DNA of 64,000 nucleotides, taken from an uncultured bacterium. Its GTDB lineage: Bacteria > Chlamydiota > Chlamydiia > Chlamydiales > FEN-1388. Shown here in pieces: positions 1,209-9,630 of this stretch. The translations under genes were made by a program, and so were the position numbers. The number at the start of each line of letters is the position of its first letter. Position 1 is the first letter of the stretch. Location of the stretch: assembly GCA_964514655.1 (NCBI GenBank), contig CAZEQY010000008.1, positions 2,631 to 66,630 of the forward strand, given 5' to 3'. The notes under the pieces are model-generated. The model made no database searches. It had not been told where the DNA came from and saw nothing but the letters and a program-made list of their open reading frames with translations.

Positions 1209-3473
1209 TTAGCTTAGGCCAGTTGGACATGCTGGGCATGGTCCTGTTGCACCAGGTGTGCAGGAAGTTACTGTTCCAGCAGCCGTGTTTTCAAAACCAG
1301 GGCACGGTGTGAAGCAGTAATTTACAAGCGGACATGCTGTTGAATTCAGCGTTCCACCGTTGTTCACAAATGAACATCCTGTTACAGGATCAAATGTGAA
1401 GCAGGAACCCTCTGGGCCTGTAAAGTCACCACAGAAGAATGTGTTAAAGAATCCTGTCAGGAACAGGCTGTTACACTGAGGTCCGGATCCTTCAATACCA
1501 TTGTCGTAATCCCAAAGCTGTGTACCAGATACTGTTACACCGTTAAGGATTTCTGAGTATGATACAAATCCATAGTAATGAATATTTACAGTGCTGTCAA
1601 AGCGGGTTCTTTCAGCAACAACGAGGTCACTATTTTGTGCGTTGACAAAGCCATGGATACGTGACTTATACATGTAGAGCATTGCTATACCTGTAACGTT
1701 TACGTTTCCAAATACTTCACCGTTAAGGTGGAGTTCTGCTGGCAAGCATGTTGCGCCATTAAACTGAACCTGAGATGCAATGCATAGGTCGCAGTTGTTA
1801 AGAGCACATGATGGATCTTGTACAAGTGGGCTAAATTCAAGTTCAGTATTCATCTGTTCTTGATTTTTCTTGCGTATGCCAAGGAAGTCCCAAATGCCTT
1901 TTTTGACATTTTTCTTACCTTTGACTTTAAGATTAGCATTTTTCTTATTATGGGCTTTCGCCTTTTTGCCTTTTGCTTTTTTCGCATTGTTAGCGTGGTT
2001 GTACTTGTGATGGTGTCTTACTTTTCCAGCAACGCTGCTAGAAGAGCTTACATCACTTGGTAGATCACTTCTATCAAAGTGTGATGTGCCAGATGAATGG
2101 CTGTATCTTTCGTGACCTGAAGAGTCGCGATAGAGGCTATTATCTGAACGGCGCATTGTTCCGCTGTCTTTATTGAGGTGCAGCTTGACAGAGCTATCGC
2201 TTGCCCAGGTGCTGCCTGAATCTGTGCGCAAAATGCGGCTTCCTGAATGCTTTCTGTACGTGCTATCTCCACGATTCTTTTTCACATCGCTAGAGTATGA
2301 ACGCTTTGAGAATGAGCTGTTAGAAGCTTTATTTGTCGATGAATGCCATCTTGTCATATCGCCATCGCTATGGATGCGAACGCCACCACTTGCATGATGT
2401 CTATAATGAACACCATTTGTTGTTGTAGATGATGAAGATGATGTATGTGTAGATGCTGAGCAAGAATCATCGCCACAAGCATTTGCATTAACTACTACAT
2501 CGCCGCTGATGCGGAACTTGTTCGCATAGCTTTGATATGGAGTAATTGAATCTGCAATTGTGTTTAGTGTTGTGATTGTAAGTGTTGGGCGAACGCCGCT
2601 TGACACATCACATACTGTTGGTGACCATACGATGCTTACGCGTGAATCATCGCCTTCTGGCTGGCATGCGCATGAAGTAAAGTCGCCAAGGCTAACAGGA
2701 CCTAAACCGATAAGGTTTATTTTTGTAGCGCCTGCAATATTGATTGTTGACTGATCATCATCATCGCCAAGGTTATAGCAACCAGCAGCAATTAAAATGT
2801 TGACAGTACGGCAGTTCTTGCAGCTTGTGCAATCTGCAAATTTTGCTTTGTCTACAGCGCGTTGGATGGATGAATATGGAGCCGCGATAGAACCTGTTTG
2901 CTCGTGAGCTGGCACTAGTGTGCAACCATCTACATAGATGTCGCAGCTAAGAGGTTTTAGCTGAGCAAGACGGCCATCACGACCTGCAGGTCCTTGATCG
3001 CCCTTATCACCTTTACAGCCTTTCTGACCACGCTTACCGCGATGTCCGCGATCGCCTTTTTCGCCAGGTTCACCCTGTGGGCCTTGTGGACCTTGAGGAC
3101 CTTGTGGGCCTTGTGGACCTTGTGGGCCAATGTCGCCTCTTGGACCTTGTGGGCCTGTATCACCTTGAGGACCTTGTGGACCTTGAATTCCAGGAATACC
3201 TTGAACGCCCTGTGGACCCATTGGACCAGGCAAGCCTTCTTCGCCAGGTAAACCAGTGCTACCTGTATGACCAGTCGAGCCGTGCTTCCCTTTTTTTCCA
3301 CGATGGCCGCGAGGACCACGTTCGGTACTACTATTATGTCTTCTAGCTTTTTCGATAACATCGCTACCGTCTAACGAAAAGTCGGCAAAATTTAGATCTT
3401 TTGCTTCGACTGTACTTATACTAAACTGCATACATGCAGCCAGCACTCCCAGCGTACAGAACTTCTTTAACAT
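1209..3473 (-). CDS. secreted collagen-like protein (about 39 uninterrupted G-X-Y triplets, Ser/Arg/His-rich and Lys-rich low-complexity middle, Cys-rich C-terminal domain)
   Basis: ORF 1209..3572. The preferred start is the ATG at 3473 ([24 protein letters not shown], signal-peptide-like), preceded by GGAGGA (tcctcc 3479-3484). The collagen run is [16 protein letters not shown]...[53 protein letters not shown]. The C-terminus has many Cys ([14 protein letters not shown]...CPACPTG). Confidence 0.85.
2970..3317. repeat. 9-nt periodic tandem repeat encoding the G-X-Y collagen run
   Basis: Reiterated ggaccttgtgg/ggccttgtgg units are visible on the plus strand. They create long shadow ORFs in the other frames (2957..3361, 2994..3251, 3077..3346). 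Confidence 0.9.
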
Positions 3474-3590
3474 GTTTTCCTCCATTTTGATGAATAAATG
3501 CCTCCGCATCGGAAGCAAATATAAAATACTAATTGCATCCTTCACCGTAAGCTGCCAAAGAATATAGGTCAATAAAAAAAAGAAAAAAAA

Positions 3591-7526: not shown

Positions 7527-8116
7527 AAAAAACACTCTATGTAGGACTATCTGCCCCAAAAGGCTCTATCCACCTGCCTCTTATTCAGACTCTACCCCGA
7601 AACGACTGCACCTTTGAAGATCTAGAAAAAGCATCACACATCATTGTAACAAGTAAAACTACATGCCACTACGCCAAAGAGCATTTTCAAGGCTGCCAAA
7701 AGCCATTTATTTCGGTGGGTGCATCAACGACTAATGCCCTACAGCAGCTTGGAGCAAAAACCATCTTAACAGCTAAAGATGAATGCCAAGAGGGCATTAT
7801 CGAACTTATAAAAGACTTAGACCTCAAAAGCCCCTTCTTTTTTTGGCCGCACTCAAACCTGTCGCGCCCCATCCTAAAAACCTATTTTGAAACCCAAAAC
7901 ATACGCTACAGCGACTGCATCCTCTATGACACTTTGTATCAACCACCTCGTGAACCAATTGATTTTCACTCCATCGACGAAATCCACTTTTCAAGCCCCT
8001 CCTGTGTAGACGCCTTTTTCCATTTCTTTGGCCCCCCTCTCCAACACATTACCCTCCGTTGCAAAGGCCGCATCACCGAAAATCACCTCCAAATTCGTCT
8101 TGAATGTTTCACGTAA
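7523..8116 (+). CDS. hemD: uroporphyrinogen-III synthase-like protein
   Basis: 197 aa with a 4-nt ATGA overlap with hemC. HEM4-like pattern: [60 protein letters not shown]. The match is weak and the call leans partly on position. Confidence 0.55.
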
Positions 8117-8156
8117 TAGATCTACTATCAGAGGCACGAATAAGGAGATAATTGTT

Positions 8157-8768
8157 ATGGTACTACAAGAAAAATTGCCGGCGTTGCCCTATGAATTTGC
8201 TGATCTTGAGCCCTTTATTGCGAGCGAGATCATGATGCTGCACTACACAAAGCACCATCAAGCCTATGTAAATAACCTCAATAAAGCACTTGAACAGTAT
8301 GCAGAAGCAGAAGCTAAAAATGATGTCGCTCAGATGATTGCCTTGCAGGCTGCTATTAAATTCAATGGTGGTGGCCATGTTAACCACTCTATCTTCTGGA
8401 CAAACCTTGCTCCACAAAAAAGTGGTGGCGGCACGCTCGCTAAGGGCCCTTTAGAAGATGCTATCAACAAAGAGTTTGGCTCTAGCGCTACTTTTATCGA
8501 GCAGATAAGCCAAAAGGCAGTAGCTATACAAGGTTCTGGCTGGGCATGGCTTGGCTACAATAAGGCAAAGAATAGACTTGAAATTGCCACCTGCGACAAT
8601 CAAGATCCATTAAGCACAAAAGGGCTTATTCCCCTGCTTGGTATTGACGTATGGGAACACGCCTACTATATCCAGTACAAAAACGTCCGCGCCGACTACG
8701 TAAAGGCTATATGGAACGTCATAAACTGGAAAAATGTTGAAGAACGCCTCTTAGCCGCTCAAAAATAA
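8157..8768 (+). CDS. sodA: Fe/Mn superoxide dismutase
   Basis: The ATG at 8157 is preceded by AAGGAGA (8142-8148). [36 protein letters not shown] and [18 protein letters not shown] are the canonical Mn/Fe-SOD signatures. The upstream 43 codons of ORF 8028.. are treated as non-coding. Confidence 0.93.
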
Positions 8769-8773
8769 ACAAT

Positions 8774-8822
8774 GCAACCGCGAAGAGGTCTTCGCGGTTG
8801 CATCTGGCACTGCTTTTTTTGG
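8774..8822 (+). terminator. hairpin terminator after sodA
   Basis: GCAACCGCGAAG-aggt-CTTCGCGGTTGC (12-bp perfect stem, 8774-8801), then a T7 run at 8814-8820. The T-run is 12 nt from the stem, so it is not a textbook intrinsic terminator. Confidence 0.5.
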
Positions 8823-8910
8823 TTGAATAAAATATTGAATTTATAGATAGAAGGGTTAAGCCCCATATGTGGGCCTAAACAACCAAAAAAATAAATTTAA
8901 AGGAAAGTAT

Positions 8911-9063
8911 ATGCCAAGCTTCAACAATCCAAACCGTAACCCAAACCAAGAACAGAACCCAAATCAGAACCAACCACAAAATCCAAACCAAAAGCAAAAT
9001 CCAAGCCAAAAGCCATCTCAAAATCCAGCTAAGCCTGGACAACAAAAGCAAAAAAATTGGTAA
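8911..9063 (+). CDS. small Asn/Gln/Pro-rich low-complexity protein (50 aa)
   Basis: ATG at 8911 with AAAGGAAAG upstream. Product: MPSFNNPNRNPNQEQNPNQNQPQNPNQKQNPSQKPSQNPAKPGQQKQKNW. A strong bidirectional hairpin follows. Coding status is uncertain because of the compositional bias. Confidence 0.4.
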   Translation: MPSFNNPNRNPNQEQNPNQNQPQNPNQKQNPSQKPSQNPAKPGQQKQKNW

Positions 9064-9087
9064 TTAATTACTAATTGATGCAAAGAA

Positions 9088-9114
9088 GGCCGGAATCTAT
9101 ATAAGATTCCGGCC
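9088..9114. terminator. bidirectional hairpin terminator between convergent genes
   Basis: GGCCGGAATCT-atata-AGATTCCGGCC (11-bp perfect stem), flanked by A-rich sequence on one side and T-rich on the other. It sits between the stops at 9063 (+) and 9124 (-). Confidence 0.6.
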
Positions 9115-9123
9115 CTCTTTATT

Positions 9124-9630
9124 TTATATCTTGATAAAGCCTTGAGCTGGACCTTGACGTCCTTGTGCAGGGGGCATCGCAGCAGGAGCTGGTCCTTTTG
9201 CACCGTCATCGCGTCCTTCGACAACTTCTTGACAAGTCTTGCGCCATTTTTCGACCATTTCAACAAATATTGGTGCATAGGCTCTTAGTGCTGATGTCAC
9301 TGCGTGCTCCATATCAAGCGTTGAGTGCACTAAAATGAGTTCTTCAGCAACAGCTACTCCTACACCACCGCCGGCCATCTGACCGCCAAGTAATGAGCCT
9401 TCAAGCAGTTTTTCGTACAGCCTGAGGCGAGTCTTATCATCTTTTGGAAGGCCATCTAATAGCGGCGAATAGATGTACATCTTACGTGAATTGGGTTCAT
9501 AGGTGATGTGCAGTGAGTACTCATCATCAATTCCCAAGATACACGTATTATTTTCATCGAATTCAAGGTCCTCTAAGCCGAGTTCCTTTCCGAATTCTTT
9601 GAGATTTTCCTTTGCATTTTCCAGTGACAT
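9124..9630 (-). CDS. type III secretion chaperone, SycE/CesT class I (Slc1/CT043-like)
   Basis: ATG at 9630 with GGAGG 8 nt upstream. MSLENAKENLKEFGKELGLEDLEFDENNTCILGIDDEYSLHITYE...YIYSPLLDGLP...LYEKLLEGSLLGGQMAGGGVGV closely resembles what I recall of chlamydial Slc1. It has a Pro/Gly/Ala-rich C-terminal tail. Confidence 0.6.
   Translation of the reverse strand: MSLENAKENLKEFGKELGLEDLEFDENNTCILGIDDEYSLHITYEPNSRKMYIYSPLLDGLPKDDKTRLRLYEKLLEGSLLGGQMAGGGVGVAVAEELILVHSTLDMEHAVTSALRAYAPIFVEMVEKWRKTCQEVVEGRDDGAKGPAPAAMPPAQGRQGPAQGFIKI

Follow-up and report, generated by a model that had tools for sequence, protein, structure and literature searches.

The window analysed here is a stretch of 64,000 nucleotides on contig CAZEQY010000008.1 of an uncultured chlamydia-like bacterium, and the element in question is a collagen-like gene on its minus strand (1209-3473) with a product of 754 amino acids (aa). 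The one long open reading frame (ORF) of the region, 1209-3572 on the minus strand, holds the gene. Its start is placed at the ATG at 3473, because a Shine-Dalgarno sequence read from the DNA, GGAGGA (3478-3483, minus strand), lies 4 nt upstream and because the N-termini of orthologs align there. A sequence-only reading of this DNA had described a secreted collagen-like protein with an uninterrupted helix run of about 39 triplets, in an architecture unusual for a chlamydia-like genome. That description stands: the protein has a Sec-type leader and a Pfam Collagen match, the ortholog records are titled Chlamydiales, the run counts exactly 39 triplets with charged triplets at its ends, and we agree that the architecture is unusual for such a genome.

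The collagen-like region (residues 53-169; 2967-3317, minus strand) is made of 39 uninterrupted G-X-Y triplets; as a triple helix it would be about 33 nm long (117 residues, 0.286 nm each). Pro takes the X position in 14 of the 39 triplets and Gln the Y position in 13; the charged triplets GKK, GHR, GDR and GEK stand at both ends. Pfam Collagen (PF01391) is the sole Pfam match of the protein, at E = 7.8e-19 and 67.6 bits against a cut-off of 27.2; this match cannot be chance. Judged by this above-threshold match together with the predicted N-terminal export signal, the protein is a member of the bacterial collagen-like proteins. The number of triplets varies between species, from 35 to 66 among the orthologs. 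The DNA of the run is an imperfect repeat, with a period of 9 bp and 70% matches over 114 bp; this imperfection, and the 35-66 triplets carried by independently assembled orthologs, argue against collapse of a perfect repeat in assembly.

The leader (residues 1-24; 3402-3473, minus strand) is a predicted Sec-type signal peptide with visible n-, h- and c-regions, kept in the orthologs: MLKK, a hydrophobic core, VEA and then KD; a crude hydropathy test is positive. A lipobox-like LAAC (residues 11-14) was considered, but a lipoprotein is improbable: some orthologs have Val or Ile at position -1, a paralog in genome G019 (LAAV) lacks the Cys, and the hydrophobic stretch runs on to the VEA-type cleavage site. 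A short acidic N-terminal peptide follows (residues 25-52; 3318-3401, minus strand) with the consensus LDFSLDRxDLVEK, found again in orthologs and in other-genus paralogs. Written more broadly (F/L-S/T-L/F-D-x-x-D-hydrophobic-I/V-x-K-E/D ... RG.RG), this pre-collagen motif is found in the orthologs, in the other-genus paralogs (L019-L021) and in some minimal forms of the family described below; it could be an anchoring or a trimer-nucleating peptide.

Among known systems, the protein resembles Streptococcus Scl1/Scl2, Bacillus BclA and Legionella Lcl in its export signal, in an uninterrupted (G-X-Y)n stalk that does without hydroxyproline, in a repeat number that varies between strains, and in the non-collagen globular domain expected to terminate a trimeric fibre. 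It falls outside the Scl1/Scl2 and Lcl families: its NCBIfam scores are 73.3 bits against a threshold of 400 for NF038330, 79.3 against 325 for NF038329 (Scl1/Scl2) and 78.5 against 500 for NF046116 (Lcl), and the SclB, Lcl and SclA models match the collagen part only. In contrast to these proteins, it has no LPXTG anchor anywhere in its sequence, no BclA/C1q-type head and no Lcl C-terminal domain; its head, in which Pfam finds no match to the C1q/TNF-like head of BclA, comes from another family and is split by a large insert.

A head domain in two halves and the insert between them

Beyond the stalk, the sequence-only reading saw a globular region, a linker and a separate Cys-rich C-terminal domain with about 12 Cys. 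The Cys-rich end is there (14 Cys from residue 556), but the two regions are, as sequence comparison indicates, the halves of one head domain. The N-terminal half (residues 170-339, IYVDG...NKFRISGD; 2457-2966, minus strand) holds 11 Cys, has a net charge of -7 and a mean pairwise identity of 76% among orthologs; the C-terminal half (residues 576-719, ending in DPVTGCSF; 1317-1748, minus strand) has a mean identity of 70%. The profile of the non-collagen part was run in an exhaustive hidden Markov model (HMM) search against 1.84 billion representative proteins (50% clustering), which returned 90 proteins at E <= 1e-3 and 35 at E <= 1e-10. In nearly all two-part matches, profile positions 2-165 (ending at NKFRISGD) and 400-545 match with 0-37 residues between them, in most cases no more than 12; only the ortholog group and a few fragments cover the stretch of roughly 235 residues that otherwise separates the halves.

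Natural paralogs tell the same story. One protein of 537 aa has abutting halves, another of 620 aa has a short acidic insert, and others carry long poly-Ser runs at the same place. It is because the halves adjoin both in relatives and in natural paralogs that they are read as parts of a single domain. The poly-Ser forms, two tandem paralogs at L019 (G019:C23:1-4500) and one from another genus at L020 (G018:C567), have about 30-40 consecutive Ser at the insert loop, in one case followed by a His/Lys-rich patch (HKGHEAHKHHGDAKHHKAAKHHKKAKH...). In the minimal forms, of 364-381 aa, a short collagen run stands between the signal peptide and a head of about 250-300 aa. The head is represented by no Pfam or NCBIfam model; it amounts to an unannotated domain family of about 300 aa, with some 90 clusters at 50% identity.

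A maximum-likelihood (ML) tree of insert-trimmed heads agrees with the single-domain reading. In it, exported forms, with a signal peptide and mostly with collagen, fall on one side (SH-aLRT 86) and forms without a signal peptide on the other. The insert-bearing clade is monophyletic (SH-aLRT 99) and is nested with two insert-free proteins that have a signal peptide and collagen (100). Because it lies among such insert-free forms, the insert is taken to be derived. The tree is unrooted and does not orient transfer between viruses and cells. The insert of about 235 aa is confined to that one clade: one uncultured chlamydial genus and its close kin. Homology searches on the non-collagen domains had been proposed by the sequence-only reading; they found some 90 head relatives and an insert limited to one lineage.

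The insert begins with a polar module rich in Ser, His, Arg and Asp (residues 340-467; 2073-2456, minus strand), predicted by AlphaFold 2 (AF2) to be an eight-strand antiparallel beta-meander, with a net charge of +8 and 11 His. A Ser tail and a polybasic Lys/His patch follow (residues 468-530; 1884-2072, minus strand), net +15 by composition and ending in VKGKKxVxKGxxDF, invariant in the orthologs. From there a variable linker of 33% mean identity (residues 531-575; 1749-1883, minus strand), with invariant Cys556, Cys561 and Cys564, leads back into the head. The protein closes with a variable Cys/Pro-rich tail (residues 720-754; 1212-1316, minus strand) of 35% identity and many indels, most of it below 50 in AF2 confidence (pLDDT).

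The first part of the insert had been taken for a Ser/Arg/His/Asp-rich low-complexity linker of about 170 aa, followed by a poly-Lys basic patch. The patch is present as described (residues 486-530, pI 10.8), and so is the rich segment, at residues 340-485 (about 146 aa, with 41 Ser among the 145 residues of 341-485); that it is an ordinary linker did not hold up, given its invariant length, the purifying selection on it and its predicted structure. In seven orthologs, the 113 residues of 354-466 align at 54% identity with 0.3 gap columns on average, against 6-13 gap columns and 33-35% identity in the flanking linkers. The ratio of nonsynonymous to synonymous substitution rates (dN/dS) against the nearest relative is 0.11 for the insert segment, 0.07 and 0.13 for the head halves and 0.20-0.22 for the true linkers; these ratios are approximate, dS being near saturation (0.7-1.8) even for the nearest relative, and for distant pairs dS is undefined in the insert. 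On this alignment evidence and on the predicted model, the Ser/His/Arg segment is evidently not an ordinary linker.

One may still suppose that the segment is a disordered, low-complexity spacer which merely spaces or tethers the Lys patch, and that the beta-meander is an AlphaFold artefact. We hold this to be doubtful, though more probable than the other alternatives considered here. The composition is extremely polar (34 Ser, 12 Arg and 11 His in 128 residues, 16% hydrophobic); there is no significant structural neighbour, no internal repeat and no profile relative; and paralogs replace the segment with poly-Ser or with nothing. Against a disordered spacer stand the near absence of gap columns relative to the flanking linkers, a dN/dS like that of the head, the conservation of aromatic and aliphatic positions, and the behaviour of the prediction itself: the seven or eight long antiparallel strands, modelled at pLDDT 70-83 with six sequences, rise to 80-87 over most of their length with an alignment of 32. 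Disorder is predicted for most of the Lys patch and for the return linker (residues 476-563), with pLDDT < 50 from residue 476 in the 32-sequence model.

Two further ideas about the module were set aside. An amphipathic or membrane-barrel meander is rejected, as there is no alternating hydrophobic face, and an internal repeat, suggested by a by-eye periodicity of 17 residues, is unsupported by hhalign (first against second half, E 0.2-0.3). The search of 1.84 billion proteins finds no relative of the module outside the clade; it is flagged here as a polar beta-module for which neither sequence nor structure comparison detects a relative.

Charge is divided sharply along the protein, with -7 and -9 on the head halves and about +23 (+8 and +15), together with 16 His, on the insert. 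The Lys patch of the window protein contains two XBBXBX motifs; the orthologs have one or none in the patch. What all orthologs do conserve is the polybasic character, net +9 to +16 over 60 residues, and the VKGKKxVxKG motif.

Cysteines are the other conspicuous feature. The whole protein has 28, of which 18 are invariant across the seven orthologs; orthologs have 28-37, as against 0-9 in most insert-free complete relatives. Invariant Cys lie on both sides of the insert (C333 and C338; C556, C561, C564 and C576), so that disulfide stapling of its base is plausible. Chlamydiae are well known for envelope proteins cross-linked by disulfides, and the extra cysteines would fit that envelope biology.

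Lineage, neighbourhood and relatives of the head

Six full-length orthologs of 725-758 aa, all from uncultured Chlamydiales, came out of a word-indexed search with residues 170-375; they are 71-87% identical over those residues and 55-68% overall. The gene's own genome (2.89 Mb, 94% complete) has the head once. Among 60 related genomes, full-length insert-bearing matches occur in all eight sampled genomes of the genus and weaker or partial matches in four further genera within its family; in 39 more families of the order, at one genome apiece, there was no match. A head-only profile detected the domain in 4 genomes out of a sample of 300 from across the phylum, and in none of 24 genomes of one genus with genomes of about 1.1 Mb. 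A clear ortholog, 66-69% identical in the non-collagen part, also turned up at L025 (JAFEGT010000084.1) in a metagenome-assembled genome labelled 'Verrucomicrobia bacterium SZAS-7'; this appears to match the same-genus genome G004, so the public record is probably mislabelled within the PVC group.

In the window the gene has an lplA-like gene, rnc, radA and a SurA-like gene as neighbours. Three orthologs from other assemblies keep the order rnc, unknown ORF, lplA-like (lipoate-ligase-like) gene, collagen gene, SurA-N-type/CHP03076 gene, two of them with radA as well; two orthologs are at other genomic sites. No phage-like genes were found in the neighbourhood of the window gene or of its orthologs. 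Between the lplA-like and collagen genes, about 15 nt upstream of the Shine-Dalgarno sequence of the latter, lies a terminator-like hairpin of 8 pairs followed by TTTATT (3499-3517, minus strand), which suggests that the collagen gene has its own transcription start; a scan for a sigma-70-type promoter found none.

The relatives without a signal peptide lead in another direction. The long ones (800-1800 aa) combine the head with Phage_fiber_2, BppL_N, K1-lyase_C or laminin-G domains, and some have collagen runs. One head relative sits in a tightly packed phage-like gene array, adjoining a match to a virion-structural PHROG; another is the next gene after a lytic transglycosylase, within a mobile region of a bacterial genome of 8.2 Mb; a third immediately follows an endolysin-like gene on an IMG/VR viral contig of 102 kb. 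The N-terminal head motif is also the part that PHROG 4577 ('tail protein') matches. The phage-like relatives looked up are all metagenome proteins without names. Two queries, P0033 and P0053, run by tblastn at E < 1e-3 against 50,697 records of deposited phage genomes, did not find the head encoded there: P0033 gave no head match, and P0053 matched cyanophage structural proteins outside the head only. From sequence similarity, then, the head is to be regarded as related to domains of phage-fibre proteins and to genes on viral contigs; with phage tail fibres and tailspikes the window protein would share a homologous head, the collagen runs of some of them and the logic of a trimeric fibre. A further family member, of 374 aa, was noticed at 8001-9125 of an 81.7-kb ENA contig (L034, Hain_H14...). 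The few Pfam matches of that contig are eukaryote-type RING fingers and split genes for the small subunit of ribonucleotide reductase; it may be a giant virus or other large virus.

A candidate envelope fibre and its rivals

One way to understand this combination of parts, and the one we prefer at a probability of roughly 0.55, is that the gene encodes a Sec-exported, homotrimeric, collagen-stalked cell-envelope fibre of the uncultured chlamydia-like bacterium. The role named at first sight, a surface fibre or adhesin, is still the most plausible. Like every functional statement in this text, the trimeric state, the surface exposure, the ligand and the part played by the insert are matters that we infer: collagen is an obligate trimer, and a trimer is proposed because of this and because the head family occurs in trimeric fibre contexts.

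In this scenario a triple helix of 39 triplets would carry the acidic, beta-rich head at its end, and the head would be the ligand-binding part, by analogy with its phage and virus tail-fibre-like relatives. In this genus one loop of the head, after NKFRISGD, would have acquired the excursion of about 235 aa, made of the polar beta-sheet module, the disordered polybasic patch and a Cys-stapled return linker; the exit point is placed from sequence, and the hypervariability of the site among paralogs is as expected of an exposed loop. The excursion might add electrostatic binding to polyanionic surfaces (host-cell glycans, membranes or envelope polymers), possibly in a pH-sensitive manner. The 28 Cys would stabilise the protein by disulfides and may also form cross-links with the oxidised envelope that the bacterium has in its extracellular stage.

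A parallel among chlamydial proteins is the adhesin OmcB, likewise a Sec-exported, Cys-rich envelope protein with a polybasic stretch, to be compared with the two XBBXBX motifs of the window protein. OmcB binds host cells and heparan-sulfate-like glycans by way of a basic XBBXBX motif, and environmental Parachlamydia have been reported to have an OmcB without the basic adhesion motif (PMC2229832). In such organisms a separate polybasic adhesin is conceivable on that ground. The two proteins differ in that there is no sequence homology between them (with Collagen as the only Pfam match, none to OmcB or Pmp proteins is seen), that OmcB lacks a collagen stalk, and that the strict motif is not conserved in the window orthologs.

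Several observations weigh against a surface fibre of this kind. Exposure on the surface would require crossing the outer membrane; no route for this was identified, and in the genome a model of type II secretion system (T2SS) pseudopilins had no match there, which is not conclusive, chlamydial pseudopilins being divergent. The polar sheet was modelled on a monomer although a trimer is expected; hydrophobic residues make up only about 16% of it, it has no evident core, and it could be an artefact of AlphaFold. Strict XBBXBX motifs are not kept in all orthologs; the housekeeping neighbourhood gives no functional clue; and the fold of the head is unproven, as Foldseek comparison of both AF2 models with the PDB gave a best E of 0.2, an alignment hampered by the split that the insert makes.

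A second perspective supposes that the trimer stays within the envelope, in the periplasm or at the inner face of the outer membrane, disulfide-linked to the Cys-rich outer-membrane complex of the extracellular stage, where its basic insert would bind anionic envelope components such as lipopolysaccharide or lipids. The very high content of conserved Cys and the precedent of disulfide-cross-linked chlamydial envelope proteins would suit such a scaffold, as would the unmatched pseudopilin model and the fact that no LPXTG, no beta-barrel and no motif for translocation across or anchoring in the outer membrane was found in the protein. We nevertheless think it unlikely. The head family is otherwise met in phage fibre proteins of the receptor-binding type; the insert site is hypervariable (nothing, poly-Ser, acidic or basic), which is more typical of an exposed, ligand-facing loop; and a stalk of variable length suits a projecting fibre.

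The preferred reading of a surface fibre can also be pushed further than we would push it. In this extension, which we regard as improbable, the lineage took a virus-type receptor-binding head onto a collagen stalk as its own 'tail fibre' for attachment to eukaryotes, and then evolved the core-less polar beta-sheet and the polylysine stretch as a pH switch: acidification of the phagosome would protonate 16 His per chain (48 per trimer), and the excursion would clamp the bacterium to the anionic host membrane. If so, the polar module would be a fold without a solved relative.

The fold of the head raises another possibility. AF2 with six sequences models the head poorly (mean pLDDT 50). With the 32-sequence alignment the mean rises to 71, and both halves appear as short regular strands, with block means mostly of 64-92 in the N-terminal half (dips of 54-57) and of 84-96 in the C-terminal half (a dip of 47-66 near residues 650-670). 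A sequence search of the PDB with the 585-aa non-collagen part gave no match, nor did a profile of the C-terminal half alone. The head-only profile, in alignments limited to the first 50-100 residues, reached E 3e-4 to 3e-3 with solved pectinesterases and 0.016 with a 'putative tail fiber'. When 22 head-family members were compared with Pfam, 11 had sub-threshold Pectinesterase matches (best 3e-6), three DUF1565 and three Bactofilin, all of them beta-helical folds. Foldseek against BFVD gave marginal matches led by a Caulobacter-phage tail fibre and host-specificity proteins (E about 3e-3). Its PDB matches, to proteins with long hairpins such as the ApoB100 belt, MACPF pores, ORD barrels and avidins (E >= 0.2), are insignificant, and no fold was assigned from them. 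The question whether the C-terminal domain is a beta-helix therefore has a divided answer: the similarity to pectinesterase, DUF1565 and bactofilin is recurrent, though always sub-threshold, and a significant structural match is wanting. Such similarity would make the head beta-helix-like and related to phage-fibre heads; it is filed in no named family.

These matches are what would favour an exported enzyme, either a carbohydrate esterase or a depolymerase, in which a pectinesterase-like beta-helix borne by the collagen stalk breaks down polysaccharides of the host or the environment; among phage tailspikes whose heads are beta-helices, many are indeed depolymerases. What the head has in common with the pectinesterases of carbohydrate esterase family 8 (CE8) and with DUF1565 parallel beta-helix proteins is a weak similarity over the N-terminal cap and first rungs (GS..PF.TIQ.A...G.Y.E). 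The likeness goes no further: all matches fall under the curated thresholds, Foldseek finds no significant beta-helix, the window protein itself has no Pectinesterase (PF01095) match, and the similarity ends before the catalytic region. A regular-expression search for the CE8 motifs QDT, DFIFG and GRPW found none in the window protein and none in any of the 22 members, and there is no conserved acidic pair among the invariant columns of the family. A pectinesterase enzyme is rejected on the absence of the catalytic motifs, and the wider idea of a polysaccharide-degrading head is very unlikely.

Least credible, and largely refuted, is the view that the gene encodes the tail fibre of a phage or prophage, or a component of a tailocin or contractile injection system, residing in the chlamydial chromosome: the occurrence of the head family in phage-fibre-like proteins and on viral contigs would speak for it, but this gene, unlike those of phage tail fibres, has a Sec signal peptide and housekeeping neighbours (kept in the three orthologs from other assemblies) with no phage genes nearby, and it is vertically conserved in a cellular genus, with full-length orthologs in every one of the eight genomes and dN/dS values of long-term purifying selection.

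Collagen-like fibres are established adhesins or spore appendages in Firmicutes and Legionella; a literature search of titles and abstracts found no description of them in Chlamydiae. Here a chlamydial lineage joins an exported collagen stalk to a head otherwise seen in phage-fibre-like proteins, and has then remodelled that head with a conserved, strongly basic insert and many cysteines. The protein is a concrete candidate for host attachment in environmental chlamydiae, in which OmcB reportedly does not have the basic motif (PMC2229832).

Other collagen-like genes of the genome

The window holds a second collagen-like gene at 44737-45933 (minus strand), which the sequence-only reading had listed as unrelated to the first. 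It is real (Pfam Collagen, 1.3e-21) and shares no non-collagen similarity with the first; the head studied here matches one site of the genome only. Its G-X-Y runs are interrupted, and its C-terminal domain of about 130 aa has no Pfam match and is unrelated to the studied head. In its N-terminal region and CIxCP motif it is a close paralog of G000:C3:69574-70698.

The genome as a whole has about 14 collagen-like ORFs, with up to 164 G-X-Y triplets; most have leader-like N-termini, and there are at least five types of C-terminal head, the studied one in a single ORF. Besides the two in the window, they include G000:C1:133332-138231, C3:60751-62055, C3:69574-70698, C4:142552-143436, C6:83351-85270, C6:95686-97941, C10:67664-69277, C11:53947-55386, C12:53616-54779, C12:58654-59571 and C13:14282-15682; three stand in tandem on C1. 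Many of these ORFs place a Cys-rich motif of the CPxCP type immediately ahead of the collagen run, where it could knot the chains together by disulfides.

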